Origin: Laetmonice hystrix | Lineage: Eukaryota | Direction: 5' to 3' | DNA length: 64,000 bases | NCBI GenBank assembly: GCA_965235115.1 | Contig: OZ249436.1 | Span: 29,824,001 to 29,888,000 of the forward strand | Shown: one piece after another, positions 1,861-26,587 of the stretch | Layout of the letters: every line of letters begins with the position of its first letter | How positions within the stretch are numbered: the first letter of the stretch is position 1 | Notes under the pieces: generated by a model | Database searches by the model: none | Seen by the model: the letters and a program-made list of their open reading frames with translations, nothing else | What the model was told of the DNA's origin: nothing | Translations under genes and position numbers: made by a program

Positions 1861-3502
1861 TTCTCGAAAGAAACCAAGGAGTTCTTGACACAAAATTAAC
1901 TTATTAGGTAAATAAATTGTTGAAAGAAAACAAAGAATCTAGACGGGTGGTCCCCTGCCTACCAGATATACGTAGCAGTCAATATAGACCTGGGGACCCG
2001 GCTAGGGTGTTCAGGGAACACGAGGCTCGTCGACTGGGTGTGCTAGATTGATCAGTGACCAAGTTTTATTGGTTGAAACTGAAACCAAACATTGGTTAGC
2101 TGCCAATGCACTGTATTGGTCAAAACGTATCAAGGTCCTTGGTTCAAACAACCAATATACAGCTAATCAACCATTTTGGTTATTTCGTTAACCAATCTGT
2201 TTTTAGAGTGTGCCCATCTGTTTCTCGGAATTGGGGGCCTGTAGAACCAAGGCATATGTACACAAGAAAGAGCAAGGTACAAAAATGGCGATAACACCTG
2301 GATTGACACCCTCTTGTCTTGGCCCACGTCGTGCCACGTGGCGACTTAATCTCTTTAATCGCTTTAATCTCAGCAGACGACTGAGAAGCGTCGATTGACC
2401 ACCCCTTGTCACGACGCGTATGATAAGTAGGCCTACTTGACTGTACTGGTGTGTAAGCTCACCAATTTCACCCTCAGCGTCTAAGCTGCTGCATGGAGCC
2501 ATTCGTGGGCCGTGGACCATCCCTCACATGATAATAACATGATAATAAGCGTTGAAAACTTTATAAATTATTCAATTACGTAACATGATGTAATCTTGAC
2601 ATAGCTTCCTAAATTTGTCAAGGCGAAGGTATTCACTAAGTTTCTCTCACACATTCTAAAAAAATAGCAAATATACACCCTCCGTATTGGGAAATGACAA
2701 ACTGCTCAACTTTGAAGTCATGTGACTCCGTCAAAATACTTCAAATCGCTCAATCCCTGCTACAACTTCTTCGGATATCTAGGAGTAACCATTCTGTACA
2801 ATTTGAAGAAAGCTTCATCAGAATTTCAGATGTATGTGACAAATGACCTGTGACCTAGTCCTTAAGAAGGTCAAAGGCCATCAGCGAAATTTTGTTAAAA
2901 CATTATTAAGGAACCATCTCTTTTCTAGTATCTGAGAGACAGTACTGTTGCCCTGTTGGTACTTGTTTGGTCACTGGAAAATATTTTCATAAGTTTGGGT
3001 CAACATCCCACCTAGGCTGTGATGTAATAAATAGTTCTTTACAGCTATGGTCATTCATTTACAGCAACACTCTACAACTTTTGTGTGTGCAGGGATGGCT
3101 CAGCAGTAAAGTGTAGGAATTCCAGGCCATGGGTATGACATAGTTCTTTACTACTATGGTCCTTTATTTACACCAAGACTCTGCAAATAATGTGTGAACG
3201 GATGGCTTAGTGGTAGAGTGTAGGAATTTTATGCAAAGGGTCGAATACCACCCATGATATTTTTTTTCTACCACTGGGAATCTACGTGAATATCTTTCTC
3301 AGCGCTGGATATCTGAAAAAACTTGGTGCGTATCATGACAATGACCTGACATGAGTTCTTTACTCTATGGTCATGGTTGACTTACTTTCATTTCATACAG
3401 GGCCTTTCTAGAGACATCCATAGAGGAACGGGATACCCGATTGCCTGCAATCTGCATGTCTAGTTGCAGCTGCCAGTCCTGCGCAAATGCGATGCGACCG
3501 GC

Positions 3503-3600
3503 TTTATAAGGGCGGGCACTTCCATCATCTTTTACACGACAGCAGGTTCAACATTAGCTCGGACAGATCAAGCGGATCGTCTCACTTTGAACAAGTAAGT
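3503..3600 (+). promoter_or_regulatory. Putative promoter and non-coding first exon of methyltransferase copy A
   Basis: tttataag (TATA-like) plus gggcggg (GC box), followed by a consensus donor AA|GTAAGT at 3595. In copy B this donor lies ~670 bp upstream of the acceptor before the ATG. Confidence 0.5.
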
Positions 3601-6600
3601 GCAAGGTTAGCGTGCCGATCTATTCGTCAGAAAATGTCTGTTTCACAACACACATCTCCCAACACAAGGATTCTATGTAGATACTTTTATTGATCTACTG
3701 GCACGGCCGTGTCCGTGCCGAGAAACTGATCAACATCACAGATTCCCCCCCCCCCTGAAGCTTCAGGTGAGAGAACCCCACAGGTGATGCTGATGTTAAA
3801 TATTCACATTATAATGTAGAATTACAAGCACCAGGTTACCTATCCACAATCTTCCGACTTGATGACGAATCCCCCCTGAGGCTTCAGGTGAGGAAAGTCA
3901 AATTTCGCGCACTCCAATTGAACGTCAAATTACACCATCACTTTTCCCCAGGCCCCACATTTGGGCCCGAAACGCCAACCGGATGACAAACGTCATCCCG
4001 GGCCCACCCAACCAAACCGGCGAGGCACATAAACCCTCCGAATTGTTACTCCACAGGGGCGTGGTGGCAGGAAAACAAGATACCCAACCGGGTCATGCAC
4101 ACGCTGGCAATAAATATATTTTCCCTCACATCGTACCCCTTCCTTCTTCCAAGAGGATTATCCTATACAGACATCCCACATTCCACGCACCATGCTTACA
4201 GTATCACCTCATAGCCAACACACCGAGCCGACAATATATACCGGGACACCAATCATCGGCCCCGCAAGATAATCATCCACACCAGGACTTAACCAATATA
4301 CCATCCCAAGTTATCGGACATCTCTAGCTATCGTACCTAAATTAAATAAGCCTGAGCCTTCAGGCACCGATCGACCTCCCGCACCAAAAACCAGGGATAA
4401 ATCCTACTGTAGGTAAAACCCTGGAAAAGCGTAAAGGCGACCCCGATCATCCGTTTGAACTATCCAACCATTTCCACCACTTGGAACAGGACCTTCCCCG
4501 TTATCTATTATTCATCCGATCTTTCCAACACCCAGTTTGAAATACCCAACAATTTCCACATGCCCACGCTCAGACAGGCTGTCCATTCCCTTGAACGTCG
4601 TGAATTCTGTCTTCTCGGACTCCAAATTCATCTTCTTGAACGGTAACGACTTGTCCCCACCGACGCCACATCTCCTTATTCCATCAGGCAACCCCGCTGA
4701 GGCACCCGTCATCTTACGACGACAGTCCACCACAAAACCCAATTCAACGCAATCACCTCCGTTCGTCCCATGGCCGACACAGCATGAAAAAGAAACACTA
4801 GCGTAATACCGTAACCCGTAGTACCACCCAGAAGTATTCATTCACAGTTCACCGTGGCCTTTACTCAACATCCTCATAACCGACATGAACACCTGCAGCC
4901 CAGCCTCCTGTGAACACACCGTCAACTTTATACCACAAGATCGTCAACTAACAACCCCAACACCGGGGCAGAATAACTGTCTCCGCATCACTCCAACTGG
5001 CCCAAAAGAGAGGCGCCATGAACCCAGCCGTCAACCTCAGAACATCGAAGGCCAAGAGGCATAAAGAACCCAAGAACACCCTGCTTCCGCACCAGGGAGC
5101 CAAAATAGCGATAAATTCAACATGTGAAAACCCAACTAATGTTTCCACTAACAATAATACCGACAATACTGCAGCTACCACAACCAAAACTACTGCAACT
5201 ACCTACTGAACCTTCTGTTATAACAATAAAACAGGAATAAGACCAAAGTTGACAAAATAAAGCTCCTGGGTACTAACATTCAACAACAATAATAACAAAT
5301 ATAACAATACTAACCATAATAGGGATAATAGCAACAACAAATAGCAGTAATATACGAATAAAAACACAAATAAACATAATAGCACCAATAATACTAAAAA
5401 TAATACCAATATAACTTTACAATAATCCTAATATAACTGGAACAATACTAATAATACTAATACTACTAATATACTACTACTACTACTATTCATAATACTA
5501 CTACTAATAATAATCATAATAAAGAATGTTACCAGGCCTGTAAAAATCGCGTGTCCGCGTGTCCCGGACGCCTATGTCAGCCGTGCGGACAACCAAAAAT
5601 AAATATCTAGGCCTAGGCGTACCCGCGGACAACCACCTTTTATATCCCGAAAACGACGCTTATTTTATCGTTTAATGGCCATCTTGTCGGCATGTTGTTC
5701 GACGGGTCCCCTAGCCGTTGAAATGGCTATATGGCTCTTTATAATGAAGCATGGTACAAGCAGGGGACACGTCCAGTCAACTCAAAATATGCACCGGCGC
5801 GTTGTAAACGGAACGGCACCCTGTATACGTATTGGATTGGCGCCATTCCAGCAAAAGGTTGACAGTGAATTACTATTTTCCGATTTTGTTAAAAAGCAGA
5901 CGATCATAGGTAATTCATTGTCGCTCATTTGGCGAAGTCGCGGCAATGAACCACACCAATGAGTAGGCCTACACTGGAGCAAGACTGTCTCAATTAGCTG
6001 ATGCAGATTAAGATTAATGGACCCTCCCTTGCATAGTTCAATTCAGATGAGGCCATTCTGTCCTGGCTTGATGACTGCAAGGGTTCCAGACACATAAAAG
6101 GACATTCAAAAAATATAATTAGTGAAAATGCACCCAGTCATGTTTTGTATTAGGCCTATACATGTATAAAACTTTATGTTCCGGTGACCCATAGATCTAC
6201 ATATGTATAGATTTACCTCATTCAGCTGATGTAATGAGATTATTGTATATATTGTAGTGAAATTGGGCCGTGTCACTACAGCACGGTTCGGGATAGCCGT
6301 GGGCTTTCCACTGGCACGGTAGAAATACACTTACCGTAGCGGCCTGCTTGTCGACTATGTCGGGCCTGCCACTGGAGTGGGTATATTTCGTCTCACAGGG
6401 ATGGTCCGTGGTTGTTGCCGGGGTCAATATGAGGGTCAGTCCGTGGGTCAATGTGTTTGGCCCGTAACCAATGTCGTAGTCCGTGGTCAGTGTTTCCCTA
6501 GTCACTAAACGGAGTCCGATAGGACTAGGGGCGGTCGTCAGGTATAAAGCCTACCAAATACCGGTCGTCACATCCAGAAAACAATAGGAGTGGATACATA

Positions 6601-7019
6601 GTTACTAGTTGTTATCTCAGGGCAGATACCATCTAAGCATAGCTATTGGCCTATCGTATAGGTTTGGCAACGTTTAGCCCGAGACTTTACTGTTTCGAGG
6701 ACTATTCGAGTCAGTATAGAGTCTACTCCTAAAGTTGGGTGCAAAAGTGAATCATCTTTTGTGGCTGAATGTTGTCAGAGATCAACAGTAATACTGGCCT
6801 TAAAGTTACACATACTCATTCTGATATAGACAGTTATGTGGTTGTTAATTAAGGCTGCTTGCCGGTTAAAGACATTTTGTCATTTGTCATATTGGATGAC
6901 ATGAAAACCAGGCAGAAGCACTGAGTTAGTTTGACCTGCATTCTCACCATTCACAGATGCTCTGAATGTAACCAATGGTTGCTCACCTTCAACCAATGCC
7001 TTGTCTAGTAGTAACACCT

Positions 7020-9100
7020 TGTTGTGGACCCACCCTGGCGAGGCGGCGGTCGTAGGTAGGAGACGGGAGGTCACCAAGTATGTAGTGGCCCAAGTCCCAT
7101 CGTGGTCACCAAATATGTTGTGGACCCACCCTGGAGAGGCAGCGGTCGTCGGTAGGAGGGGGACGGGGGGCTTACCGTACCATGTACCCCAGTGAAGACA
7201 ACTCAACGACGGCTGGCGGTGATGATAATTGTATTGGCAGACATGATACATGATATAGAGTATCGCGGGATACTCTACTAGCCTAGAGGCCGAACCTCAT
7301 GCTACTGACCAACCGAGAACAACTCTCTCACTGACCAACTCCCCGAGTAGGAGTGGAGTCGGTGAGCGCCAAAACAACTATCATAATCGATCCACGTCGG
7401 AGATCCAACACACATAGCCTGTCCGTTCAGGCGCGCAAAATACACAAATATATAAATCGAAGCAGACTACGGCCTATACAAAACACACAGTTATAAATCA
7501 AAGCAGGTTATGGCCTATATTATAACTCGGTTACACAACCAGAAAAAGCCCTACCGTTTATAGCGTCCGTTATGTGGCGAATATAAAATACACAAATCGC
7601 CACCACAAATTATGGCTATAGCTATACAAAGGCTCGCCCAGAAATGGCCTACGGTAAATACACATTATATACAGTGTCCGTTCCCAAACTGGCATCCCGC
7701 AGGTCCAGTGTTGTCGGCGCGTCCACCGCCCTCTGCGGCACCATTTTCCCCCAGTGAACCGTCGTTCTCGGCGACACCATCGTCCTCGAGGGCACCATCG
7801 CCCTCAGCGGCACCATCGCCCTCGTCGACCAGCCGGTGACGCTGCCTGACCTGCCCTGGGCCAGTGCGGGGTTACGCACCCCCGCCCCAGGTCCAATGCA
7901 GCCAGTCACGCCCCCCAGCTGATCCAGTCCACTGCCCGCATCATTGACGCCCGCCTCGCCTGGCCATCCTCGCCGCGGCCACCCACCTGCGCATCAGAGG
8001 GGCCTTCGCTGGGCCATCCAGAGAGCACCCACATACCTCTGTAACGCTGTTGTCGCCCACGCCCGGCGCCATCGCCCTCCCCGAGATCATCGTCCTTGGC
8101 GCCATCGTCCTCGGTGCCATCGTCCTCGGTGATTACTGGAACGCTAGACCCGACAGGGTCCACACCCGGCCTGCTAGCGTTCGAACACGACCCGCTAACT
8201 TCACCAGCGTCGCTTCTAGCTGGTCCGTCTTCGCAATATAGATGGTGGCCATCAGGACTATATCCTCCTACCTTTCGCTATGCTCCGCTGCAGCTCCTTG
8301 CACTCAACCAGGGTGCCTTCCAATTCCATGGCCGTGGGTCCGTGTACTGGACGGTCATGAGATCAGGCATCGCGTGGAGTGTGTATGTCCACACTGCAGC
8401 GCCACGCGGTGCCGTCACAAAGACCGTCCCATCGTGGTCACCAAATAAATGTTGTGGACCCACCCTGGAGAGGCGGCGGACCCGAGACTGAGCCACGGCT
8501 CAGCTCGGGCACATACTCTGAACAACTCGCCCCCTCTCTCCCTTAACTGGATATTCGGTGCCCCTATACATATATACGAAACGCCGTCCGTGTCGGCATC
8601 CCGGCCGGAACTCCACCCCCTCCGCTCTGCCAGCAGTAGACCCCGGTGGCCGCGGTCACCGACACGGACCCCCGCGATGACATCGTGTCACCGGTCGGTC
8701 AGTGTCCGGATCTCGCGGCCCCCAGTGACACCGCTCGCCCAGCCGGGGGTCCGCCATGGAGGCCAACACGGACGGAAGACGCTGGGTACGTGCCGGTGTC
8801 ACCTCACCACGACATCGGTATCGATACAACCTTTACGCAACTTGGGAGGTGACGGCCCGAGCGTTCCCGGTTCCAGCCCGCACCAGCATCCGACTTAAGG
8901 GAACCCAATACTCCAGCAACTACATGATTAAATATATAAACGACATCCGAGCCGCCCATCCTTAAGGGAACGAGCACAAGGATTCGACTATACAAACATA
9001 CAGAGATAGTAAAGTATACAGTAATAATATAGGCATACATATATATACGGGGAGGCCAACTATACTAAATGTCCAGCGGCTGCGAAGCCTAGCCGCAACA
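7020..9100 (-). mobile_element. Non-coding LTR-like element nested in the Gypsy, with internal LTR-end plus PBS duplicates
   Basis: Termini TGTTGTGG...CCGCAACA with TSD ACCT (7016-7019, 9101-9104). Motif tgttgtggacccaccctgg at 7020, 7116 and 8450. The latter two adjoin PBS-like tggtgaccacgatgggac on the minus strand (7094-7111, 8426-8443). Confidence 0.75.
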
Positions 9101-10871
9101 ACCTGTTACAGTGTTACCGGTACCCAGCACTTTCAATGGTGGGTAATGTTGGCCTGATCTCCGGGTCGAGTGGTGGCCTTTGCACTCGACCCTGCTCAGT
9201 TTTCCGACGTCAACTGTGGAATCGATCGGTGACCGATTTGTCCACAGCTGTGGCAAACTGAGCTGACTGACCTTTGTGGGCTCGGGGGAGTGGCAAAGCA
9301 GGCTTGCCGGATGTTGGGGGCATCCCCACAACTCTGGGCATTTACCTGTTCTTTTAATGCCGCTATTTCCATCCCTTGCTCCTTGACAGTCTTTGTCAGG
9401 TCTTTTACTAGGACACAGACCTCCTGAGATGTCGCCAGTTATCTCAGAATGCATGGCCATAACTGACTTGCAAGTCTCCTTGAGAATTTCTGACGATTCT
9501 TCGTCACATGAGGTCTGCGCTTCCTCATCCTGCCAATTGACGCGCCTCAACTCTGATCGAGAGCGGTCTTTCCGACCAAGGGTCACCTGGAAATTATACT
9601 CGAATTCATCGACTTTCCGTCTCGCCTCTGTGAGGGTCGTTGGCTTATGGTTTAGAACCAGGCAGGCCACGTTGCTATTGCGGTACCCTTTCAAGAAGTG
9701 TTCTACTGTTAGTTCTTCGCGGGTAGCAGTGCCTATTCCGGGATAGGCCTGCGCAACAAGCCACTGTACGTCTTCTGCGTACTCTTTAGTGGACCGGGAT
9801 TCTTGTCGAAAACTCGCGAGCTTCATCCGCACAGTCCCAGCTGGTTCAGTCTCACCATATCTCAGATCGAGCTCTCCTCGCAACAGGGCGTAGCTCTCGC
9901 GGTGATCTCCAGGCAATGAGAACACGAAGCGGGCGGCTTTTCCTCGAAGACATTCGTAAAGGTGGTCCAGCCGGTCATCCTCATTCCACCCATAACGATT
10001 CGCCATTCGTTCAAAGGGGTAAATGAATGCTTCCCAGCTTTCCTCCTCATTACCCTCGAATGTAGCCATATTTGGCCTCGACAACGGATACCCCATTTGT
10101 GTAGCTCTGCTACCTATGGTGTTTTGAGCCATGCTACCTGCTGGTGGCATCCCGTTCACGGAGGTTGGCATTGCTCATCCTCTCCCGGGGCGGCCCTTGC
10201 TGGGCCTGCCGCTCAATCACCCCAAGAGTTGCCGCATACTCTTCCTCGAAGAGTCGCTGCTTCTCTGCTTCCCGTTCACGGAGACTAGGGGTGGAAGTGG
10301 ATACATGTGGTATCGCTGAGAGGGGTACAGGCTGAGTGTATCGCTCCTGAGGGTTTGCTAGGGAAGGATTTGCTGGCGGAGCGACAAGCGAAGCCTGTCG
10401 CTCCTGAGGGAGCGGGGCAATAGTAGGAGGGTGCTGCGTCCCTGTGGGATGCTTAGGCACCGCTCCAGATGGAGACAGGTTTGGCATAGTTGTGGGAGGT
10501 TTAAGGACTGGTTGTCGTGGAGAAAGTGGCGGCGGAGTCAAAGCCTCAGCACCTTTCACTTCCTTCTCCTGTCTTGGGGCTTCCAGCCTCTCCATCATGA
10601 TGTACAACAATTCAGTCATTTGTTTCTGACTGGCTTCCAGTCTTGCACGACCCTCCTGATCTAACCGGGCGCGCTCGTCCCGTTGAGCAAGCTCTGCCTC
10701 CCTATACTTTTGCCTCTCAAGTTCTATTTGGTCTCGCTCCTCCCTCCTCTTTTCTGAATCACGGAGGAAAGATATAAGTTCCCCAAAACTCTCTCTGAAT
10801 GAAAACTCCTCCTCCCTTTCCTCTTCCGTAGCTTTCTTTTGGGATTTAGGAGGCATTATAGGATTTATCAA
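9101..10871 (-). pseudogene. gag: Gypsy gag (coiled-coil and Pro-rich N-terminus plus capsid domain), frameshifted near 10134-10171
   Basis: Overlapping ORFs 10134-10871 and 9089-10171. Capsid-like FEGNEEESWEAFIYPFERMANRYGW...LRGKAARFV...LDLRYG and downstream EYAEDVQWLVAQAYP...VEHFLKG. Confidence 0.85.
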
Positions 10872-12668
10872 ATTCAGAGATTAAGCCAAATACTTGTTGC
10901 CCATTCAAGATCGGAGTTACCGAATCACTAAGTTCGTGTACTGGAACTTAGGAATAAATGAACAAGTATTAAATTCGAATAACAAAGCTTGTACTATATT
11001 CGACTTATTTCGAAAGTACGAGTCTATATAATTTGAACTTGTCAAATATTTTAATTAATCTATATCAAATAAGTTAACCTAAGTACAATTTAATATTTAG
11101 TTCATGTACTTGAATTGATCAGATTAAGCACTGCTAACTTTCTAAGTTACTTGCAAGAAAATCACTGAAGTTCAGTAAAATTCAAATATTGGAGTGCTTA
11201 TAATAAGCTGAGACAACAATAGGGTTAGGTTTATTGACTGTAAATTCAAAGTCAACACCGAGTATCTCTGTGTAACAATTGAATAGATAAGCAATGCTAG
11301 GTAATACAGTCAAACCCTTATATTGTCAAACACTTTTATCACTTACTCACCCTGAATGTCTCTACAACAAGTGTTATAGTCGTAAGTAGAGGCAAACACC
11401 TTAGGCTTTCAAGTGAATTGCTCGTAAATGTCCGTAAAATACAGGTACCGTTTGGTAGAAATTGTTTTCCAACCTTAGTCTTGTTCAATACGACGTGGAG
11501 CGGTAGTGTGGTTCGTTTTCTTACATCAGATGGCGCTTGTAGTACTACGGGTGTCCCGAGCTGGCGCCACCTGGTGATTAGTGGTCGTACTTTACTCCAG
11601 TAGCGGCCGACGTCATGCAAAGTAAACACAAGGTGGTTACTCAAGTTTGACAGCCTGTATTATGGCACAAGTAACGAATTCAAGTATACAGAATCGAAAC
11701 TAAATAGAAAACGTTACTGTCTACTTCAGAGAATGCACAGTTTATGCTCCTATACCACTATTTTATAGCAGGGAACGAATGCACCGGTGGTCTGGCAGAG
11801 CGGGGCTATATGTGGCACCACTCACCAGTCACATATCAGTCGCTATGCGTGCAAATTGTCACCTCTATGTCACTTTTAGTGAGTAGCCCTAGTTACTGCG
11901 AAGTTATGCTTACTTACGCTGTAATTATGTGAAGCTAGTATAGATGCACAAATACGTAGTACAAGCAAAAATACAGTTGACCAATATTAGGCTAATCAAT
12001 AAGCTCGGTCAACACTCAAGTTGGCCCACCGTCGCGCTCTACCGCGCACACGAGAGGTACTGAGTGGCGTGTGAATGGGTGCACGTGTACTGGTGCAAAT
12101 CACAACTTTGACCAAATTGGACAAATCTACAAGTTAAACTCTACACAACCTCCCCCCGCTTCAAACAATTGACTATGCTGAAAACGGAGATGTGAAAGAG
12201 TAAACGCAAATACATCTAGAGTGCAGCCAAACGTCTGCGTGCTGCTCTGCGCGGGAAATCTAAGCGCTGGCAATGACGCACGTTCTTCACTCACTACTGT
12301 AGTAGGAGTGTGCCGTCGACTCTGTAGTGAGTGTCGTGGTTTCAACTACGTGTATTGAAACTGTGGTTTCAACTACCGTGTCAGTTAGTTTACTTCTGAC
12401 ACCAATTGTAGTGAAACTGTGGTTTCACTAATAACTGTCGTGCCAGTTACTTTACTTCTGACACCAATTGTAGTGAAATTGGGCCGTGTCACTACAGCAC
12501 GGTTCGGGATAGCCGTGGGCTTTCCACTGGCACGATAGAAATACACTTACCGTAGCGGCCTGCTTGTCGACTATGTCGGGCCTGCCACTGGAGTGGGTAT
12601 ATTTCGCATCACAGGGATGGTCCGTGGTTGTTGCCGGGGTCAATATGAGGGTCAGTCCGTGGGTCATT

Positions 12669-13404
12669 AGGCCCATTCGACTGGCCGTTTTCGTGAAGTA
12701 TCTTTTTTCGTTAAGTAATGATTACATTCGGCTGGCTGCTTCGTGAAATTTCGTGCTCAACGAAATGTCACGGAGACTTGACTGCGTGAAGTTCGTGAAG
12801 TTCCAGCCAAGATGGCCCGGGCCAGTATGAAAAATTACCGAAATCGCCCAAAATCTCCCGAAATCTAAATAAGAATTACAGAAATCTACCGAAATCTAAA
12901 TAGGATCTATTGGAATCTACTGAAATCGACCGCCAAACGGGTGTAACTAATTATCGAAATCTGAAATCGATCTCCACCTACTGAAATCGACCCCCAAGCA
13001 GTGTGTATAGATTTCGGTAGATTTCGGTAATTAGCCAATTGAAATAAAATATTTCTCAGCTGAATTTAAGGATAGGAATGGACAGATAAAGACATAGGCC
13101 TATTATAGGCTAGCCATTAAAATGGCCAATGTTTTGCTACATCATATTCCTTAAATGATATAGGGCAAGGATTCAAGAGTATGCCAGATAGTGTCGGCAG
13201 CCTAAGTGGCATCTGTGGTTTCATCTTTGAAATCGTCTGCTGTTGCCATGGTTGCCACCCTTGACCTTATCAAGGCGTATGCAAGGTGAATCTGTGAAGC
13301 ACGATATCATTCTAGTGGCTGCACTGCGTTAAGTAACTTTTCAGAAACTAGGTCACTGCGCAGATGAAAATTTATTTCACGAAAACGGCCAGTCGAATGG
13401 GCCT
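12669..13404. mobile_element. MITE (PIF/Harbinger-like) inserted in the Gypsy LTR
   Basis: Perfect 29-bp TIR aggcccattcgactggccgttttcgtgaa. Flanks ATT/AAT. Empty site gggtcAATgtg is visible in the other LTR at ~6445-6455. Confidence 0.85.
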
Positions 13405-14279
13405 AATGTGTTTGGTCCGTAACCAATGTCGTAGTCCGTGGTCAGTGTTTCCCTAGTCACTAAACGGAGTCCGATAGGACTAGGGGCGGTCGTCAGGTAT
13501 AAAGCCTACCAAATACCGGTCGTCACCCGACAGTGGCCCGGGCGACCGAGTAGGTGGAGGCGGTCAAACGCTCTGGGGCAGCGAGGGCCTACTAGGCCAG
13601 CACAGTAGACCAATGGTCACTGGGCTGTGGCGGCATAGGCCGAGGGTTGCAATATCGGCCTGTAAGGTAACCGCGTGGGGCTCCTCACAGGACGACAAAC
13701 TTGCAACAACTCTAGTTATCGCGGGAAACCCAGGCTTATATAGATTCTACCCTTCTGGGGCCAAACTGAGGCGGCCGATTTACACGATCCGCCAGAGGGC
13801 GCGATATGGGGATATACTGACTAGGTGAGCCTCATCCCTAGGTGGCGCTAGGTTCGGTCCAAGGCACTTTCACAACAATATATTGTATGTTTTCTCTATC
13901 TGTATTATTGTCATAATGCTTCATACGTACATTGTGCAGTCATAGGCACTACAAAATAGAGTAAACATTTAATAATATCCCTAGGAAGCCAGCATTCTTT
14001 TTTGTGTGAGGACAACCAAATATTATGTGGGGACAACCATATTTTGAAAAGTGGTTGTCCTCAGGACAACCACTTTTTTATGCGATTTTTACAGGCCTGG
14101 TTACCAATAATAACAACAACTAATAATAAAATAATACACAATAATAAAACCACTGACACCATACCATCATAAAACCATAAACCATTACTAAATTTCCATC
14201 ACCACCCACAAAACGGTCCCCTCACTGACCTGATGAACCCACCTTCCTTGACCTAACGCTCCATCAACAGCCCATCAGC

Positions 14280-16260
14280 ACCACACCGTCAGCCTACCGC
14301 CACATCCATCGCCAACTTAACACCAACATCATCAGCCTAACCCCACAACCCTCGCCAACCTAACGTTACAACCACCGTCAACCTACTGCCACAACCAACG
14401 CCAACTTACCGACACCAACACCGTCAGGTTACCGCCACAACCAACGCCAACTTACCAACACCAACATCGTCAGCTTACCGCCACAACCAACGCCAACTTA
14501 CCGACACCAACACCGTCAGCTTACCGCCACAACCAACGCCAACTTACCGACACCAACATCGTCAGCTTACCGCCACAACCAACGCCAACCTAACAACACC
14601 AACATCATCACTTACCGCCCTAACCATCGCCAACTTAACGACACCAACATCGTCCGCTTACCGCCATAACCAACGCCAACTTAACGACACCAACATCGTC
14701 CGCTTACCGCCATAACCAACGCCAACATAACGACACCAACATCGCCCGCTTACCGCCATAATCAACGCCAAATTAACGACACCAACATCTTCAACTTACC
14801 GCCGCAACCAACGCCAAATTAACGACACCAATATCATCAACTTACCGCCCTAACCATCGCCAACTTAACGACACCAACATCGTCCGCATACCGCCATAAC
14901 CAACGCCAACTTAACGACACCAACATCGTCCGCTTACCGCCATAACCAACACCAACTTAACGACACCAACATCGTCAACTTACCGCCCTAACCATAGCCA
15001 TATTAACGACACCAACATCGTCCGCTTACCGCCATAACCAACGCCAACTTAACGACACCAACATCGTCTGCTTACCGCCATAACCAACACCAACTTAACG
15101 ACACCAACATCGTCAACTTACCGCCCTAACCATAGCCATATTAACGACACCAACATCGTCCGCTTACCGCCATAACCAACGCCAACTTAACGACACAAAC
15201 ATCGTCCGCTTGCCGCTATAACCATCGCCAACTTAACGGCAACAACATCGTCCGCCTACCACCCTAACCATCGTCAGCCTACCAGCACAACCATCGCCAA
15301 CTTAACACCAACATCGTCAGCCTACCACCACAACCATCACCAACTTAACACCAACATCGTCAACTTACCGCTCCAACCATCGCCAACATAACGAAACCAA
15401 CATCGTCAACTTACCGCCACAAAAATCGCCAACCTAACGTCACAAACACCGTCAGCCTACCGCCACAACCATCGCCAACATAACGAAACCAACATCTTCA
15501 ACGTACCGCCACAACCATAGCCAACTTAACGAGACCAACATCATCAACTTACCGCCACAAAAGTCGCCAACCTAACGTCACAAACACCGTCAGCCTACCG
15601 CCACAACCATCGCCAACTAAACGACACCAACCTCGACAGCTTACCGCCACAACCATCGCCAACCTAACGACACCAACATCGTCAACTTACCGCCACAACC
15701 ATCACCAACTTAACGACACCAACATCGTCAACTTACCGCCACAACCATCACCAACTTAACGACACCAACATCGTCAACTTACCGCCACAACCATCTCCAA
15801 CCTAACGACACCAACATCGTCAACTTACCGCCACAACCATCGCCAACCTAACGACACCAACATCGTCAACTTACCGCCACAACCATCGCCAACCTAACGA
15901 CACCAACATCGTCAACTTACCGCCACAACCATCGCCAACGTAACGCCACAAACACCGTCAGTCTACCGGCACCACCACCGCCAGCCCATCGGCACAACCA
16001 CTACCGAACCTAACGTCACCAACACCACAGACTACCCGAACCACCATCACCAGCCTACCGGCACCACCCTAATCAGCCTACCGGCCATTACAATCCCAAC
16101 GGAAGCAACATCCCCAGTCCCCCCGGCACACCATCACCAGCCAACCGGCACCACACTCACCAGCCTACCGGCACCACCAGCCTACCGGCACCACCATCAC
16201 CAGCCTACCGGCACCACCTTACACGAGCCCCACGGCACCACCCTCATCAGACTAACGGCA
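14280..16260. repeat. Minisatellite: 46-bp unit made of two diverged 23-mers, grading into a 23-bp accggcaccaccatcaccagcct array
   Basis: ttaccgccacaaccatcgccaac + ctaacgacaccaacatcgtcaac, period 46 (e.g. 15781 and 15827). The 23-mer array reappears at ~18310-18570. Confidence 0.9.
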
Positions 16261-17014
16261 CCACTCGAGCCACTTCAACCCATATCGAACGACACGGGAA
16301 CCACCACAGCTAACCCCCCTGCTGCCTTTTACCGGATATTCCCAGACCATAATGTGATAGGAACAACCACCAGCGACCAAAAGAAGCATACAAGTGAATA
16401 ACATTCAAATCATCTCCTGAAAGAAAATTAATTAAACATCCTAACACATACTACATAATATTAATCAAATTACTAACAGTAACACTACTAAATACAATAA
16501 CGATATTTAAAAAAAACAACAACAAAAAAACACACACACATAATACTAAGGACCATAATATTAAATAATAACAGCAGTGATTTTAGGAATATTATAATAA
16601 TAAATAAAGTGAATAATTATAGGAAAACCAATAATAAATTCTACTAAACTCGATTATAAATTAAATTACGGCAACACGATACCTATACCAATACTTTCGT
16701 AAAAATGATAAAACTACTCCTTTCACAATGTTACCATTCAAGCTACTAACAATACCACTAACAATAATAACCAATACCTCTAATAAAACTAATAATAACA
16801 TAACAATATAGTAACACATTTTTTCCCAAAGGTAAACTCCAAACTTGTAAACCGGTCCCCCGACTACAGATGCAGCCTTCCTCTCGGGAACACCTACCCC
16901 TGACCCCCCCCCCCCCTCCCCACAGTCTTCACTCCGAGCACGGCTCCCCCTGACCGCCGCTGCCGTCCTTGACCTCCAACGCAGTCTTCACGCTGAGCAC
17001 GCACCCCCCCCCCC

Positions 17015-18900
17015 CCAACTGTCGCGACGACTTCCCCCACAACACCGAACCCCCACACTGCTGAAGCAGCCTTCCGTCAGAAACACAGAACCCCCACACT
17101 GCCGAAGCAGCCTTCCTCCACAGCACAGAACCCCCACATTGTCGCGCAATCTTTCCTCCACAACACATAACCACCACTCTGCTGCGCAGTCTTCCCCCAC
17201 TAGCACAGGTGTACTAAGCCCAAACCACTCTACCCTCAAAGCACTATGGTAGTAGTTTGAGCGTACGCCCAAACTACTCTAGAGTGCTTTGGGCGTACGC
17301 TCAGACTACTCTAGAGTGGTTTGAGCGTAAGTCAGCCTACGCTCAGATGACTACCCTGCCCACGCCCACACAACTACTGTTATGCTCAGAACACTCTACT
17401 AACTCTCAAAACACTACCCTCGCTTAATTTAGATACAACTCCCAGGATTCGTTCAAAAACCTTCTTCTTCTCCTTCTCCTTCCCCTCCAACTCCTCCTCC
17501 TTTTCCTCCTCCTCTTCTTCTTAAGCGGGGTGGTGTTTTTTGGGTGTTATACTACTGTTATGCTCAGAACACTCTACCCACTCTCAAAACACTACCCTCG
17601 CTTAATTTAGCTACAACTCCCACGATTCGGGCAAAAACCTTCTACTCCTTCTCCTCCCCCTCCTCCTTTTTCTTCTTGTTCTTGCTCTTCCTTCTTCTTC
17701 TTCTTGATTCTTCTGGACATTGATAATACCGAAATCTAGCCTAATTCTCAGCAGTGGGTGGGGCGTCTTGCCCCACCCACAGGGGCGTCTTCTCCGAAGG
17801 GAGGTGGGTTTACAGACACCCCGACCCCCCCCCCCTGCACATGGCCCTGGGGGGAATCCCCCCACACACTTTTTTCACCAAAGAAAAAGTTTGTTCCTGT
17901 TAATTGTCATAAAGTGTAACTTTTGACCTTCACAATTGCACTCAAAGTTCAACAGATCACTCCATAGTCCTAAAATCGTTTTCTGGACTATGCATCAGAG
18001 CCCTAAGTTTGCTTGATTTCGCTGTCAGGAACACCCGCTGCAAACATTAAAATAAAAGTCAGACAAGTTTCAGGACCCCCCCTCCCCGTCCACTTTCAGA
18101 ACCCCCCCCCCCCTTACAAAAGGAACTGCCGCCCGTGGGTGGGGTAGTGTTTTGAGCGTGGGTAGTGTTTTGAGATTTATAGGGGTAGTGCTTTGAGCGT
18201 GAGAGTAGTGCTTTGGGTGTACCCCCAAACCACTACCGTAGTGTTTTGGGCCTACGCTCAAAACACTACGGTAGTGGTTTGAGCGGGGTAGTGGTTTGAG
18301 GGTGTTACACCGGCACCACCATCACCAGCCAACCGGCACCTAACCATCACCAGCCTCCCAGCATCACCATCACAGCCTACCGGCACCACCATCACCAGCC
18401 TCCCAGCACCACCATCACAGCCTACCGGCACCACCATCACAGCCTCCCAGCACCACCATCACAGCCTACCGGCACCACGATCACCAGCCTAACGGCACCA
18501 CCATCACAGCCTACCGGCACCACGATCACCAGCCTAACGGCACCACCATCACCAGCCTACCGGCACCACCTACGCGAGCCCCACACTGTCGCGCAGTCTT
18601 TCCCCCACAGCGCATAACCACCACACTACCGCGCAGACTTCCCCCACAGCACACAACCCCCACACTGCCGAAGCAGCCTTCCTACTCAGGCACAGAACCC
18701 CCACACTGCCGTAGCAGTCTTCCTCCACAAGTACAGAAACCCCACACTGCCGAAGCGTCCTTCCTACACAAGCACAGAACCCCACACACTGCCGAAGCAG
18801 CCTTCCCCCACAAGCTCAGAACCACCCAAATGCTGTGCAGTCTTCCCTCCACTAACACTGCCCCACATTACCAAACAGTCTTTCCACAACAAGCACATTT
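17015..18900. repeat. ~40-bp minisatellite (gaacccccacactgccgaagcagccttcctccacagcaca) in two blocks, ~17015-17207 and ~18575-18900
   Basis: Period 40 (cccccaca at 17091 and 17131). The same unit resumes after 18575. Confidence 0.8.
17208..18311. mobile_element. Foldback/MITE-like insertion with long imperfect, internally repetitive TIRs
   Basis: GGTGTA...TACACC ends. caaa(c/g/a)cactac motifs on the left are mirrored by gtagtg(g/c/t)tttg on the right. Internal ~177-bp tandem duplication. No clear TSD. Confidence 0.6.
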
Positions 18901-19037
18901 TTACCACGAGCCCCCAACAGGCTTAAACCTTGCTCAACCATCCCATACACCAAGCGGCAATACAGCCGAGCAACCACGATTATTTCTTGTCCCAATGTAT
19001 AAAACATGCACCCCACTTCTCTCGTCGACACCAACAC

Positions 19038-19991
19038 TAGGGATGTCGGACTTTTTTTGAAAAACGCATTAATGAATTGGTAAAGGACATATATGGGGTC
19101 AATTTGGCATGAGAAAATAAAAAATGGGATCAGTTTTTCTCTATCTGATAAGGATTTGATATATAGATATTGGCCATGTTATATTAAGATTTTTGATTTT
19201 TTTTTTGGCACGATAGGGCATTCTTATAATATAGATGGCATGAAGTGGACGAAAGTGAGTTTTTATTATCATTTGACATGTCTATCACAGACTCTCCAAC
19301 GTGTCAACTTGATCACAGACCTCATCAGCTTGATCACACACCTCTGTATCCATTAGATACCCAAAACTGGAATGTAAACAACTCTGGCGCCAAACCGCGA
19401 GTGAGCGATAATAGAAGAAATGAAAGCAATAAAAGCACTAAAACGGCCTGGCGCTAAAAAGCGCTATGCTTGAATTAAACTTTCTGACCAGGAATGGCAA
19501 GACAAATGACCAAAGTTCATAGCAATACTATGCCATTTCTTGCCAAATTGAGTTGAAGGAAGCCCCCATGCTTTTAATGTCAGCCAAATTACCCTTGATA
19601 TTAAGTCAACTTATAATTATCATAAACTTACTTAAACTAAACAAAATAAAGCTCAATCTACCTTCTTATTTGACACGATCAGCATTCTGGGGCTTTCTTA
19701 AGATGCAATGCCTAGATTACATGGTCATGATGTGCCCTATCTGCTGTAAAAATGGCCGCGCTTCATGCTCATGCAGAAAAGGTATTTTCATACAATTTGT
19801 TGTTGCGCGAATTCTTAACAGATTTCCTTGAAACTTAGACCAAATCAAAGCGCAGGCTCTCTTCTTTTATTTGGTATCAATTTTGAACTGTCTAACTTGT
19901 GTACACGACAATTATCATCCAAGAAACGCGACACTACTTAACATAGGGTTACAATGGGGACTCGCTGCTGCGCGAAACTCCGACGTCCCTA
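19038..19991. mobile_element. Non-autonomous DNA transposon (hAT-like)
   Basis: TIR tagggatgtcgga / tccgacgtcccta. TSD CCAACAC (7 bp), or ACCAACACT (9 bp) if the ends are AGGG/CCCT. Confidence 0.8.
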
Positions 19992-21118
19992 CCAACACTG
20001 TCCGCACCGTCACAGCTGTACTGCTCTAACAACCGACTGCTCGGCCCTCTGGGTCAAAAGAGGGCCAACTTTTCCAGCCCAAATTTCCACCAGCATAGTC
20101 AAACTTACATGCGCATACACTCCAACGAAATTCCACGAAGACTTCACCTCCACCACGTGTCCCACACTTTCGTCACGAGTACCCAAACCGTCCGACCGTT
20201 GCACCACCGACGAGACATGCACCAAAACTCTGAACATTTCAACCCAGCTCTCTCCACTGTCACAACAGCACCCACTTGCTCCGCCACCGTAGTCACGCTT
20301 CACTAGCTAGAAACTCAAACGAAAACGCCGCTCCTTGTTTTGACCGTCTGCTTTCAAGAAGGCCCAATCTTCCTGGCCTACTCACTTTTATACCCTGCTT
20401 ACCTGCCATGCCATCTAGGTCACGGCATTTGCATAACCGTCCGTTGTGTGTCGTGAAACTCCATTTCGTTGGTCGAAATCTGCCTTTTCACATCAGTAGG
20501 AAAGGCCCATTTTCAAGAGGGGGATATGACTAGCGGGTAACGAGAATTAAAAACAGGTAAAATATGCTGTTTGAGGCTGGAACATAACACTGTCCTTAGT
20601 TACCATTATGTACATTAATTATAGATGCACATATCACATGCCAAAAAGATAATCAATATTTCAATTGTAGCCATTATATTATTGAATACGTTGGCACATT
20701 TTAATTTTCTGAAAGGGTGTCAAATCTTTTGGGAATCTGAACTGGAAAATGTTTACAAAGCCGATTCAGTTTTATGATACATCGCCCGTGATAACTTAAC
20801 CCCCACTAAATTTGGTCGAAAGTAAAGATGTACATCCCTGACCTGATCCCTTACCCCAAACCCTAACCCTCCCAAAAACATGTCCCTATCCTATTCCTAT
20901 ATCCCTATCCCTGACCTTAACCCGAACCCCTGACCACAAATTTTGTGGGGAATGTATCATGGCGAAATAACGAGTGCTATCGGCTTGTTCTGTACATTCC
21001 ATAATTTATGTCCAGTTATTCTCCGAATTCCAGACATCACCTATATCTGCGTGTGATCTTAAATTTACTTTTGATATAAACACGAATACTCGATATTATG
21101 CTGTAGAAATTACAGAAA

Positions 21119-24100
21119 ATGGCTAACATGGACAAGTTCGATGAAGTGGCCTTCGAAAGAGCCAGAGGGGCCCAGAATCCAAAGCAATCCTTTCCCGAAC
21201 GAATGCAGTATTACGACACTTGGGCATCTGAGGAGACATACGACATCGTACGCATGTTTAGGAGCCTACATAATTAGAGTAATTCAAAATTAATTTAGTT
21301 CTGAAACCACACATTTTATTAAGTGTAAACAGAATATTATATTTAAAATTCTGTTTCTAGCATCTGGCGCCCACTAACTATCGTGGACCCACACTCTGTG
21401 CAGCTGCTATTGAACATTATATGCCCACAACGAAGGAAATGCATATCCTTGACATAGGAGCGGGCACTGGATGCGTGGGAACGGAAGTACGTATAAAGCC
21501 ATAGAATATCCACCAAACTATATTGACCGTCAGAAAATTAGTTCACCAGACAGGACGCTTGGGTATCCATGCATGGCGATGTTGATTCACAGGCTTTTCG
21601 TTAATGTTTGTTGAAAGTCCAAGATAGCACACCTTCTTCATATTACAATCTCATGTTATTTAAAACAGTGCAATTGTAACTTAGAGGTTGGGTTTCAGAG
21701 AAATGTTCTCTATGTTTCTCTTCTGCGTTCATGCACATATGAACACCCAGAATGAATTATATAAAGAACCGATCTATGTCACATTATTACTGATTTTGTA
21801 AAAATGATGTTCTATTGGTTAAGAACAAAGCTTGAACAGTCAGGTAGATGGCGCCGTAATCGTCCATCCAACAAAAAATGTGACATACAGTAGACTTTGC
21901 ATTTAACGTACTGATTGGGACCAGAGATTTGTGTTTGTTATATGCGAAGTCTGTTATACGCATAGATCTATACAGTAATATTTGTATTATCGTTCGACGG
22001 GACCGAGACTTCCAGTTTCAGTACGTTGTACGCGACTGTCATGGTATATGCAAGGCCGTTATATGGTCTACTGTAGATCGTTTTTCCCGTGTACTCGTCA
22101 TATATTTCTAGTTGCTCCAAAATTTGGGTTAAAGTATAACAGAAACGCAGAGAAAATCGCATGTCTCTGTGGACCCCCTCCCCCCACGTCATTGCTGTAA
22201 TATCCAATAGGCCGTTCGCTAATAAGAGCATATCGGGTGGATAAAAAACGCCCCGAACTTTAAACTTTAATACTTCAAAAACTATGCATTCTAATTCAAT
22301 AAAATTCCACGTAATATCACTTCATGATATTATCTCTGGTATGTTAAAGTTTCAGCTCCATAGCTTTGATATTAATCCCGTGGCGCTAAAAACAAAAATC
22401 AGTGTCTAAAAACGCAATGCCGGAATTAAGTCAAATATCATGCAGCTGCCAGGTGTCCAATTTGACACCTGTTTGATGCACCGCATTGTCCCTTGGGTGA
22501 AAAATTCCATATCTAGTTTTTGCATGTTTCACAATATGTATAATGTTGTGGACCACTAGATATAATAAAATATGTGCTATTCCTAGTACTTTTAGAGAAA
22601 AACAGATGTTTAATGTGCCAAACCCTACAGAGAAACTGCAACATTAGGACGGTATGACTGTAACGAGAAGTTCAAGGTAAATCGTATCATTATCACGTTT
22701 AGCAACACATTCAGAACGTTACGTATTTCTCAATGTTGGGAAGATATTTCCCTATCAGAGATCAGGAACTGCAGTGGCTTATGGAAAAAGACACTGAGAG
22801 CAGTCTGGAGTGAAAACGGGGGACCGATTGACCACCTACTCTGGTGTGAGGCCAGGGACTCTGGGTGAGACTACAACTCGCTTTAGCCTGGCATTGCGCT
22901 TTTGTACAATGAATTTTGTTTTTAGCCTCATGGAAACATTATCCAAGCTATTGAGTTGTAACATTAACAATTAAGAGACAACATCATGAAGTGGGATTAA
23001 GAGAACTTTGATTGAATTACAATCATTACTTTTTGAAATATTGAAGTTTAAAGTTCGGGCGTTTTTTTTTATCCACCCGATATATTAGCTTATGAAGCGT
23101 GGATACAAGAACATCGAGGCAATTGAACCATCGGAAGGGATGCTGGAAGCTGCCAGAAACAAGAAGGTTTACCGTAAACATACTCTCGGTGCATTCGGAG
23201 CCACAAACCCATCTATTGGTGACCGTAAGTATGCGCACCATCAGCAGTCTTCATGTTGGGCACCCAACAAATCTCCCACCGTATCCTGATGACCAATTCA
23301 GCCAACCTATAAACCAATATATTAACCAAAAATTTGTTTAAATTGATCAACGTATTTTAGATAATAATCTAACAAATCTGGATTGTTAAAAAAAACTACC
23401 AGAACTAGATTATTTTAACCAAGATCTCGGTCGGACACATAATCTACCATCTAGACTGGTTAAATTTAACCATTATCCAATATCTATATCTCTATCATAC
23501 CCAGAGGTCTGATTTCTGCCGATTATATGTCTCTCAGGTTCCTACGATGCGCTGGTCTGTTCGGGCGTTTTCCTGGAAGGCCACCTTCCATGCAAGGCTG
23601 TGCGAGAGATGGCTCGAATTACTAAACCAGGTTTGTCGTGCGTTTTTCTTTTTAAGGATGGTTCCTTTAGATGATGCATGTATTCATATATGTGTAAAGT
23701 TTGCGAATGATTATGATATACATGTAGGCCGTTTTGACAAAAAAGTTCATGGTCTACAAACGGGAAGTTATTCATTAAAAAATGTTTAGAAACTAAATTC
23801 TGTTATCTTAGTTGATCTCCAGAACACCTTGATGTCCTGCTTGTCTTCATGGAATAAATAAAAATAATTTTCTAAATAAAAATTGTTGAAATGCAAACAG
23901 ATGAAGTATAATCATGAGCACAAATATTCATTCTTCCAGGCGGTTTGATTGTGATTGTCTTTCGCGAAAAGGTTCTGGAGCAGGTGGAAGAATACCGCGG
24001 CCGCCTGGAACCGATGATGAAAGAAATGCAAGCGGAAGGAGTTTGGGAACTCTTGGAAAGATCTGTGAAACCCATGTACTTTTTGGACATGAATGGCGTC

Positions 24101-24136
24101 CTATATGTCTTTAAAGTTAACGAGGAAAACAACTAA
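21119..24136 (+). CDS. METTL27: Class I SAM-dependent methyltransferase, METTL27/WBSCR27-like, copy A (226 aa, intact)
   Basis: Exons 21119-21247, 21361-21486, 23089-23224, 23538-23630, 23940-24136, all GT-AG with consistent phases. Motifs YYDTWA...YD, YRGP, ILDIGAGTG, AIEPSEGML, SYDALVCSGVF..GHL, MARITKPGGLIVI. Family recognised from motifs; orthology untested. Confidence 0.88.
22233..23080. mobile_element. Tc1/mariner-like MITE in the intron before coding exon 3 (copy A)
   Basis: TA flanks. Long TIRs tcgggtggataaaaaacgccccgaactttaaactt... / ...aagtttaaagttcgggcgtttttttttatccacccga. Confidence 0.85.
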
Positions 24137-25144
24137 TTAAGAATAAGATTGAATATTTTAACCAGCAGCCGATTTCGCCATATGGCACTACTTGATGTAC
24201 TATAGTTTCTGTTAGAAGATGGGAAGCAGCGGTATCAATTTCGAATGAATTGTTCAGATTTCTAAAATGATGTTATCATGTATGTAATACAGTAAACTTA
24301 GAGATACAAATGCAAAATTGATTGATACCCGTAGGGGAGGTATATGTAAAATATCTCCACCTATATGTAAAAAAAATTACCGACGAATATAAAATTGAGA
24401 AATTAACAGCTGGTTGATGCGGCCATAAAAATACATTATTATAAATTAATAAAACTTTCTTGGGTTCACTGCTATCACACTTGCTTTTACAGATTCTTGT
24501 CCCCGCGCGCGTCACCTAAAAACCCCCGCGTCAAGTCTTTTTTTTTATAAATCTGACTGCTTCATATGGTGGGCAGTGTAGCACTGTGACAGAACGTTGC
24601 AATGGTTCTTTGGCGTTGGCGTTTTCCTGTTAGTCTTATTGCTTTTTATGTGAGTTTTACACATTCTTTAACGAAAACAATGAACATCATTGCATTAGTT
24701 TTTTCTTCAAGGTTGCCTGGTTGCATCCATAAAAAAAAGGAGGATGAAAAAAACGCGTCACCGCACCATTTTTTTATATGAAAGGACAAGAAACGAAATC
24801 TTCAGTTTTCTGCTTTCCTGCTCACTACTGACGTACTTTGGCACTGATTGTTTTTCATATTGATTCTGTTAACACATACTACGAGTAGACAGCTGTGAAA
24901 TTCTCCCTAATGTGGAAAAATGAATAAAACTAGCTTCAGTGTCCGCAAAGTGCGGTGAATCCGCCATCTAAGTAAATAACAAATAGATAAATAAACAAAT
25001 AAATAAATAAATAAGTAAATAACAAATCTATAGAACTATAATGGCCCATCCGCTGATCGTGTGAAAAAGGTGCAAAAGCCGGCTGCAAATCCCGGGGTCT
25101 CGGAATCTAAGTGTGTCATTTTCAGTGACTGAATTAAGACTATA

Positions 25145-25527
25145 GGGCTGGGCAGTCTCGTGTCCTGGATATGCAAATGACGTAAAATAGCCTCAAACCA
25201 CTTGCGCTTTGGGGACAAACAATGTGACGTCACAAATTGCCCATAGGTTTAACATAGGCTCAATAACAACAATTTCTAAAATCAGGTTGTAGTGTAAAAA
25301 ATTAAACTTCTTACATGTAAAATGTACCTTTTAATTCAGTAAACTTGTTAGTTAATCATATTTGTAAAGCTCAAGACTCAAAGTGCTCTCATTGGGGAGC
25401 AAAAATATTTTGAAGTTGACAGTCGCTGGTCCCTATGGGCGTAGCAATGCTAAGCTGACGAGACTACCCTCTGTTTATTCCCATTCTCGCATGTTTGCCT
25501 ATCTAGGACACGAGAACTGGCCAGCCC
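25145..25527. mobile_element. MITE with GGG...CCC ends (duplicate at ~55269-55651; relative at 30055-30449)
   Basis: TIR gggctgggcagtctcgtgtcctggata / tatctaggacacgagaactggccagccc, TA-flanked. Shares internal tatgcaaatgacgt and tgtgacgtca...cccatagg blocks with the 30055 element. Confidence 0.75.
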
Positions 25528-26166: not shown

Positions 26167-26454
26167 CACTCGGAACACCGACGCTGCTTCTGATTGGTTC
26201 TGACAATAGGTCTAGCCTAGAACCGGTAACATTGATACAAATAATGGTTTTTAAAATTTTTGTCATCTTTTAAATTAGGTATCTTTTGATGTCGAAAACA
26301 AAAGAGACATAATGTCTGCACTTTTCACGATGTCTGAATATTACAAACGACCCGAAAGAAGTGTAATCGTGGCTTGATGGCAGCCACCCTATCCTTTACA
26401 ATAGCAACCTCGTTTTTGGATGGCTTAGTTGGTGGAAGCGCCACCTTCCGAGTG
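26167..26454. mobile_element. Small MITE with CACTCGGAA termini (duplicate ~56291-56584)
   Basis: cactcggaa...ttccgagtg. The first 31 bp are identical to the left end of the 26588 element. Confidence 0.55.
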
Positions 26455-26587
26455 TTTTGGCGTACCCTATTAACAGAAATGCCATGTTTCACCAACGAGA
26501 CTAGACTATAGACTCGATCGTTGGTTTCGACGAATAGGGCCTAGGTGGCCATGTTGGGGGTGGAGTGGGGTGCGATGGGGGTGGGGG

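Follow-up and report, generated by a model that had tools for sequence, protein, structure and literature searches.

A 16.8-kb block with Helentron-type ends and nested inserts, and its empty site, in Laetmonice hystrix

HINE elements, as described in PMC4067079, carry inverted repeats of 12–15 bp that lie 2–4 nt from the 5' end and 38–60 bp from the 3' end; those of Helitron2 elements lie 0–2 and 20–30 bp from the ends, and the definition of Helitron2 uses a 5' hairpin (the two-hairpin definition, PMC3627910). Nested transposable elements inside Helitron-like elements are already known (PMC11417382, PMC5148889), including hAT insertions in Fusarium Helitron2-type elements, for which the source gives no evidence that the chimeras moved (PMC5148889). 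We analysed 64,000 nt of Laetmonice hystrix (assembly GCA_965235115.1, contig OZ249436.1, positions 29,824,001–29,888,000; hereafter the window, which contains no N), where a 16.8-kb block with Helentron-type ends interrupts one copy of a duplicated region and is absent from the other. In our preferred reading, to which we give a probability of about two in three, a 6.2-kb HINE (HLE2) element inserted in the lineage of copy A and then gathered further inserts in place.

Empty site and ends of the outer block

The duplicated region comprises copy A (about 2211–31059) and copy B (48844–60206). The two align across the site on both sides (3274–3650 against 50327–50708, 95.8%; 20485–23772 against 50698–53978, 97.7%). 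Copy B reads GTCTG-TTTT-CACATC at 50693–50707, and copy A reads GTCTG-TTT-CACAACAC...CTGCC-TTTT-CACATC. The left flank of A matches B through G3640 and the right flank from C20489, with 16,848 bases in between; the net insertion is 16,844 bp, and its ends are fixed to within the T-run. The uninterrupted site in B and the nearly exact boundaries claimed by an earlier note on this DNA are thus confirmed. Because copy A shows three T at the left junction and four at the right one, the element would have brought three T of its own, and the insertion can be placed between two T in three of the four registers. The same register ambiguity is described for HINEs (PMC4067079). At this one site, then, the block sits in a T-run with T on both sides and no target-site duplication (TSD), but a 7-nt direct repeat spans the junctions. 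This repeat, TTTCACA at 3641–3647 and 20486–20492, had been overlooked in the earlier note. Since its right copy is present in the empty site, that copy is host DNA and not an element end. CACA follows 23 of the 2407 T-run ends in the window; the repeat could be a coincidence of about 1 in 100, noted post hoc; it could also reflect a preferred target or a deletion that B has undergone.

The ends carry the asymmetric inverted repeats, 3' hairpin and T-run target reported earlier: the repeats match over 15 bp with one mismatch, the hairpin has a weak 6-bp stem, and the insertion lies at T|T. The left arm begins at the boundary and the right arm lies 25–29 nt from the other end, close to the spacing given in the literature (PMC4067079, PMC3627910). 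When we drew 3000 random position pairs as a control, three reached at least 15 bp, all of them 22–62 bp long, and we take these for genuine repeats within the window. Neither terminal repeat occurs a second time in the window, nor does the 3' hairpin. Asymmetric subterminal inverted repeats of 11–18 bp and a stem-loop between the 3' repeat and the 3' end, here a weak one, are the marks of HINE/HLE2 elements, and the end anatomy is consistent with their description (PMC4067079, PMC11417382). Judged by its ends, the block is probably a non-autonomous Helentron. The earlier assignment to Helentron/Helitron2 holds for the HINE/HLE2 anatomy but not for Helitron2 in the strict sense, because the 5' hairpin of that definition is absent; the first 36 nt of the element fold as unpaired.

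Other classes describe the ends less well. The 5'-TC...CTRR-3' ends of canonical Helitrons (HLE1), inserted between A and T, do not occur at this block, which ends in CTGCC plus a T-run and has TTTT as its target. Nor does the outer block have symmetric terminal inverted repeats (TIRs) at its tips together with a TSD: the right arm lies 25–29 nt inside the end, and the 7-nt repeat, taken as a TSD, fits the empty site only with the loss of one T. As for Replitrons, the right 7-mer is host DNA and no Rep was detected in Pfam scans of the frames.

Backbone and nested inserts

Without its three direct inserts, the backbone measures 6205 bp. On the plus strand its A+C fraction is 0.70 over all four pieces and 0.64 without the arrays, compared to 0.50 ± 0.035 (maximum 0.58) in 93 outside windows of 500 bp; the excess of C over G in 3641–5150 has p = 1e-19. 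The hAT5-like element, the miniature inverted-repeat transposable element (MITE), DNA6 and the untranslated pieces of the Gypsy element show no skew, DNA5 and the inner long terminal repeat (LTR) element are mildly C-rich, and the skew is only weak in the final 190 bp of the backbone. Since the skew runs in a single direction over all backbone pieces, the backbone reads as one unit. The 46-, 45- and 23-bp arrays are mutually related and stand beside the 40- and 41-bp arrays. The most open backbone frame has 13 stops, with 22 ± 4.5 expected, and lacks 3-base periodicity. No coding remnant, protein relative or periodicity turned up to support a mitochondrial or viral source for the skew. In the 46-bp array, 14 units show decay of CpG to CA and one shows decay to TG; as this amounts to four sites against one in units that are not independent, and the non-array backbone shows no excess (CA/TG 1.09 versus 1.08), we treat the asymmetry as a lead only. 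Among the papers listed in a literature search, none dealt with strand skew in Helitrons, which does not imply its absence from print.

Six inserts on four levels fill the rest of the block: the backbone holds the hAT5-like element, DNA5 and DNA6, the hAT5-like element holds a Gypsy, and the Gypsy holds an inner LTR-type element and the MITE (Table 1). This is the nesting that the earlier note had described, but its count of five inserts with TSDs drops to four clean ones: 5 bp at the hAT5-like element, 4 bp each at the Gypsy and the inner element, and 7 or 9 bp at DNA6. One base is mismatched in the duplication at the MITE, and the GCAC repeat of DNA5, one unpaired base outside an imperfect TIR at the join of two repeat modules, may be chance. 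No transposase lies in the 938-bp hAT5-like element, so its assignment rests on TSD length and termini; a CAG start is typical of hAT elements.

The Gypsy shows TG...CA LTRs, a primer-binding site (PBS), a gag (PF03732, E 1.3e-5) and a TSD in the 4–5-bp range, which a contig joint confirms. Its gag found one match, without a taxon, in a protein search, and no pol domain was detected by Pfam in open reading frames (ORFs) and read-through frames, so that the element is assigned to its superfamily by gag and termini. The left (3') LTR keeps 319 of about 670 bp, a truncation that had gone unseen. Between the LTRs we count 4 differences in 318 positions (5 with the base at the MITE site; 1.3%, 95% confidence interval 0.3–3.2%), in agreement with the 4 in about 320 bp given before. 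Because the MITE sits in one LTR only and the other is truncated, both events would postdate Gypsy integration. The two ends of the inner element have only 30 bp in common, and its right boundary at 9100 and its TSD were set by a contig joint.

Public contigs from four runs (X1–X4) of one sample in one study, possibly the assembly's own, contain 35–49% of the sampled words of 3300–5500. We placed them on 3100–14270; what follows draws on 15 of 60 joints, 24 of 1022 loose ends and 32 of 4316 pieces. The joint from 6248 to 13878, which is the hAT5-like element without the Gypsy, occurs in 4 of the 4 runs; 3 of the 4 also have the joint from 7015 to 9101, the Gypsy lacking its inner element. Both outer members of the hAT-like branch thus exist without their own inserts, and the inserts are independent multi-copy families, as both nesting scenarios predict. 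Contig depths, which are not copy numbers by the tool's own warning, were 207–261 in the interior of the backbone, rose to as much as 1491 close to the 5' end and stood at 862–877 on the hAT5-like element; five of the lowest long contigs had 57–63 and one had 16.

The 5' end and the first backbone piece are present as variant contigs. One X4 contig spans about 3640–3786, and its start, as derived from distance-to-end values, coincides with the predicted 5' boundary. An X3 contig covers 6570–7015 plus 150 further letters that are not on the adjacent LTR, from which the LTR truncation seems to be particular to this copy. Backbone contigs of X1 and X3, two of the three deep runs, stop 97 letters past 5438 (about 5535) and X2 stops near 5473; the branch point between sequence with and without the hAT5-like element would be 5534, and a path continuing into the TIR would end at about 5562. 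The contig ends near 5534 offer a weak hint that insert-free backbone copies exist.

Table 1. Features of the block and its surroundings (positions in the window)
Feature	Position	Strand	Basis
Whole block absent from copy B; probable non-autonomous Helentron-type (HINE/HLE2) element with nested inserts	3641–20488	+	A/B comparison
Empty target TTTT in copy B	50698–50701	+	A/B comparison
5' subterminal inverted repeat, 15 bp, 1 mismatch to 3' arm	3640–3654	+	alignment; X4 contig start ~3640 (inferred)
3' subterminal inverted repeat, 25–29 nt from end	20445–20459	+	alignment
3' hairpin, 6-bp stem, 5-nt loop	20463–20479	+	folding, −4.0 kcal/mol
Two small hairpins behind 5' repeat, neither pairing with it	3677–3719	+	folding
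Backbone piece 1, non-coding, A+C 0.64, ends in AAT/TAC-rich tract	3641–5532	+	composition; variant contigs
Backbone piece 2: 46-bp (2 x 23) array 14279–15983, 23-bp array 16018–16264, 40-bp array 17031–17208	14105–17206	+	repeat analysis
Backbone piece 3: 45-bp and 41-bp arrays; second copy of repeat module of 15969–17206	18317–19037	+	repeat analysis
Backbone piece 4, including 3' end	19999–20488	+	composition
Short imperfect hairpin motif (4391–4423), very high contig depth	4374–4435 (approximate)	.	depth, folding
hAT5-like non-autonomous TIR element, 938 bp without insert, 18-bp perfect TIR, 5-bp TSD GTTAC	5533–14099	.	termini; Gypsy-free contigs
Gypsy-type LTR element, TSD ATAT, 5' LTR 12469–13877, 3' LTR truncated to 6253–6571	6253–13877	−	termini, gag
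Inner LTR-type element, TSD ACCT, non-identical ends, at end of gag frame	7020–9100	−	termini; contig joint
MITE in Gypsy 5' LTR, 29-bp perfect TIR, ATT/AAT 3-bp duplication (one mismatch)	12669–13404	.	absent from other LTR
DNA5, TIR-like, subterminal palindromic repeats, imperfect ends, GCAC duplication doubtful	17207–18312	.	repeat analysis
DNA6, TIR element, 7-bp TSD CCAACAC (9 bp if TIR read one base shorter)	19038–19991	.	termini
Predicted first (5' untranslated region) intron, SAM-methyltransferase-like gene	3595–21106	+	sequence motifs

Some further observations concern the repeats themselves. The motif at 4374–4435 is probably shared with another abundant repeat: depth reaches 19491–33830 at 4407, about 20–70 times its surroundings (489–905 at 4500; X1–X3), several X4 contigs enter it from differing sequence, and loose ends lie at 4374. 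Its core at 4391 had no match in viral contigs or in Rfam. Over 3000–21000, Rfam gave six matches, all to miRNA models far below the gathering score and all on DNA5 palindromes. The pattern of 3' repeat plus hairpin had no match in viral contigs; its nine loci in metagenome contigs, none with BLASTN similarity to the window and none keeping the hairpin pairing, we attribute to chance. A near-palindrome, CCTGA..TTCAGG, occurs three times in the first backbone piece (3754–3767, 3875–3888 and 4350–4363). In both LTR elements, extra copies of an LTR end with a PBS-like site lie near the true junction, one in the Gypsy leader (12389–12416) and two or three at the left end of the inner element (7020–7158). 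High-depth contigs also join 7375–7377 to 8478 or 8544 with few other letters between, and these joins of 7116–7377 with 8478–9100 suggest a high-copy LTR family with modular LTR variants.

Order of events and competing explanations

We propose that a RepHel transposase supplied in trans would have copied a 6.2-kb non-autonomous Helentron-type element, and that single-strand transfer placed it in the TTTT of copy A's lineage, adding three T of its own without target duplication. The hAT5-like element would then have entered the backbone and the Gypsy the hAT5-like element; an LTR-type element and the MITE would have entered the Gypsy, half of whose 3' LTR was deleted, and DNA5 and DNA6 would have entered the backbone. 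The data show the boundaries, the end motifs and how the inserts of the hAT-like branch are ordered. The rolling-circle mechanism, the partner enzyme, the gain in A and the nesting after arrival all belong to the conjectural part of this scheme. Away from gaps, A and B differ at 142 of 9970 aligned positions (1.42%), and the LTR divergence equals this figure (Fisher p = 1.0). The LTR clock therefore allows nesting in place and does not favour it over transport of a loaded element, and we no longer read the few LTR differences, as had been done, as a sign of recent nesting. It is the contig data and the damage to the Gypsy after its integration that favour nesting in place, without proving it. 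The earlier choice between insertions after the duplication and a pre-assembled cargo leans the same way, but is too narrow if A and B, which may be true paralogues or two haplotypes assembled in tandem, come from two haplotypes or from an assembly that duplicated one; what their divergence dates is then the split of the sequences and not a duplication.

Several points weigh against this sequence of events. The time set by a divergence of 1.4–2.7% between A and B must hold at least seven events, and the LTRs of the Gypsy differ by no less than A and B do overall. The TTTCACA repeat at both junctions is left unexplained. The 3' hairpin is weak, with a stem as long in 3.3% of 5000 random 29-mers, and a 5' hairpin involving the repeat was not found, the longest complement within the next 146 nt being 5 bp. 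No RepHel remnant was found by Pfam in 61 ORFs or 24 read-through frames, and two large protein searches gave no relative for the most open backbone frame. Finally, the hAT5-like junction is masked as a repeat, the insert-free backbone was not seen directly, and the four runs represent a single sample, perhaps that of the assembly, with contigs placed on 3100–14270.

The same type of element could instead have arrived loaded, with the hAT5-like element (with or without the Gypsy), DNA5, DNA6 or several of these carried by rolling circle as a cargo of up to 16.8 kb. In the Helentron group only the ends are thought to be necessary for mobilisation. The LTR divergence is indistinguishable from that between A and B, and the hAT-like copy differs by about 1% from its contigs (2/247, 3/264, 10/673), an age comparable to the A/B split. 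We nevertheless consider transport of a loaded element unlikely: A/B divergence is uneven among segments (0.7–3.7%, heterogeneity p = 2e-8) and higher beside the site (8/352 or 2.3% on the left, 12/445 or 2.7% on the right), which leaves time for nesting in place, there is a weak sign of branching among the backbone contigs at the hAT-like junction, and the Fusarium hAT chimeras are described without sign of movement (PMC5148889). The time squeeze would vanish altogether if a loaded element predated the A/B split and B lost all of it, by deletion guided by TTTCACA or by precise excision, leaving a derived empty site. The heptamer is indeed present at both junctions, and the backbone differs by about 2% from its contigs (9/454, 10/550, 12/550), no less than A from B. 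Deletion within the repeat, however, would leave three T where B has four, and the left heptamer belongs to the 5' inverted repeat, so that no separate origin is needed for it. Deletions of 16.8 kb guided by 7 nt of homology are uncommon, and we regard loss from B as very unlikely.

The 7-nt repeat could also be read as a TSD that later lost one T, as in the Helitron2 families CRe-1/2/3, whose TSDs vary, or as the terminal direct repeats of a Replitron-like element. TSDs of 7–19 bp are described for some non-autonomous Helitron2 elements (PMC3627910) and short terminal direct repeats for Replitrons (PMC10288648). A TSD demands an extra deletion of a T, strips half of the 5' inverted repeat and, unlike in CRe elements, is not preceded by TTTT on the left, while a Replitron is at odds with the host origin of the right repeat and with reports from algae, plants and protists; there seems very little chance that either applies. 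Equally hard to credit is that the block was put together from several repeats, rolling-circle or other, and that its outermost ends match by chance. Contigs over the 5' 150 bp are deeper than the interior, the motif at 4374–4435 has its own high depth, one X4 contig departs from the reference at 3881, and the backbone contains a duplicated repeat module. Yet the terminal pair is the only inverted-repeat pair of at least 14 bp that joins distant backbone parts, the window holds no second terminal repeat or 3' hairpin, and the skew is one-directional throughout.

A further idea, which strikes us as quite unlikely, is that the HLE2 family picks targets that mimic its own 5' end (TTTCACA) and that the A+C richness is a footprint of repeated single-stranded passages. 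The new 3' junction would then resemble the joined ends of a circular intermediate. IS91-type elements show comparable mimicry with a target tetranucleotide, and the Helentron mechanism is itself inferred from Helitron1 experiments. If true, the mimicry or the skew would allow the choice of target and the use of strands by Helentrons to be read from sequence alone.

Host context and comparison with known systems

The insertion lies 46 bp past a candidate splice donor (3595) and ahead of the exon with the ATG (21107 on), in a predicted intron of 663 bp in B (50652–51314) and 17.5 kb in A. Matches to methyltransferases are sub-threshold and confined to one 43-amino-acid exon; the exon with motif I is open in both copies (21361–21489 in A, 51569–51697 in B), and just after the glycine-rich motif B has Arg and A has Cys. 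Elsewhere, copy A alone has a 637-bp segment in 27635–28270, flanked by a GAGAGAGGT-like direct repeat, and an 85-bp segment at 23773–23856, and copy B has a perfect 244-bp tandem duplication (59335–59578). A two-unit repeat in the left flank (3031–3241), absent from B, has the highest mean contig depth of the covered stretch (22,700–31,000, X1–X3). Beyond copy A lie Polinton/Maverick-like remains (31593–35571) with a protein-primed DNA polymerase B fragment (PF03175, E 1e-10), upstream of which is a broken ORF without a Pfam match, and an 8.6-kb foldback (39034–47621) of nested long inverted repeats, with arms of up to 2 kb that are 84–96% alike and GAA/TTC tracts at its borders. Positions 60207–64000 hold a BEL/Pao retrotransposon (PF05380, E 1e-20), which starts where the match of B to A ends.

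With an empty site in the duplicate copy to fix the ends of a large HINE-type element, the locus makes a well-bounded teaching case, in which a predicted 0.66-kb intron grew to 17.5 kb by stacked insertions between flanks that diverged by 1.4–2.7%. It also gives a rough local rate of transposable-element accumulation in a marine invertebrate, since this single block records seven events or more. The locus would gain in importance if the loaded element were mobile, in which case rolling-circle transport would carry other transposons along together as one unit, or if mimicry of the target and the strand skew were shared across the family.

Compared with known systems, the hAT5-like insert shares the 5-bp TSD of the hAT5 group (named in PMC12730594) and has an 18-bp TIR starting with CAGG, but, unlike hAT5, it contains no transposase. 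The outer element resembles Helitron2 in its asymmetric terminal inverted repeats, a 3' arm 20–30 bp from the end and upstream of a hairpin, and a 5' T (PMC3627910), and FoHeli1/2 in the T-run at the 3' end (PMC5148889); it differs from both in that no 5' hairpin involving the repeat and no RepHel ORF were detected. Its repeat is not palindromic, as that of mite HINEs is, and has no inverted-repeat partner as in DINE-1; the 3' repeat lies 25–29 nt from the end instead of the 38–60 of HINEs, and six foreign inserts are present (PMC4067079). The oyster Cg_HINE has an inverted repeat and microsatellite directly behind the 5' repeat, which are missing here, whereas our element has several arrays within about 3 kb of non-array sequence; both are marine-invertebrate HINE-type elements with central satellite-like arrays, subterminal inverted repeats (usually with one mismatch in Cg_HINE) and TT targets at empty sites (PMC7492417). 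With HINE/DINE-1 elements it shares subterminal inverted repeats of 12–15 bp, a 3' palindrome, the lack of a TSD and of coding capacity, a T-rich target, element-borne T and internal tandem repeats (PMC4067079). A HINE-type element swollen by nested inserts is a clean example of known behaviour.

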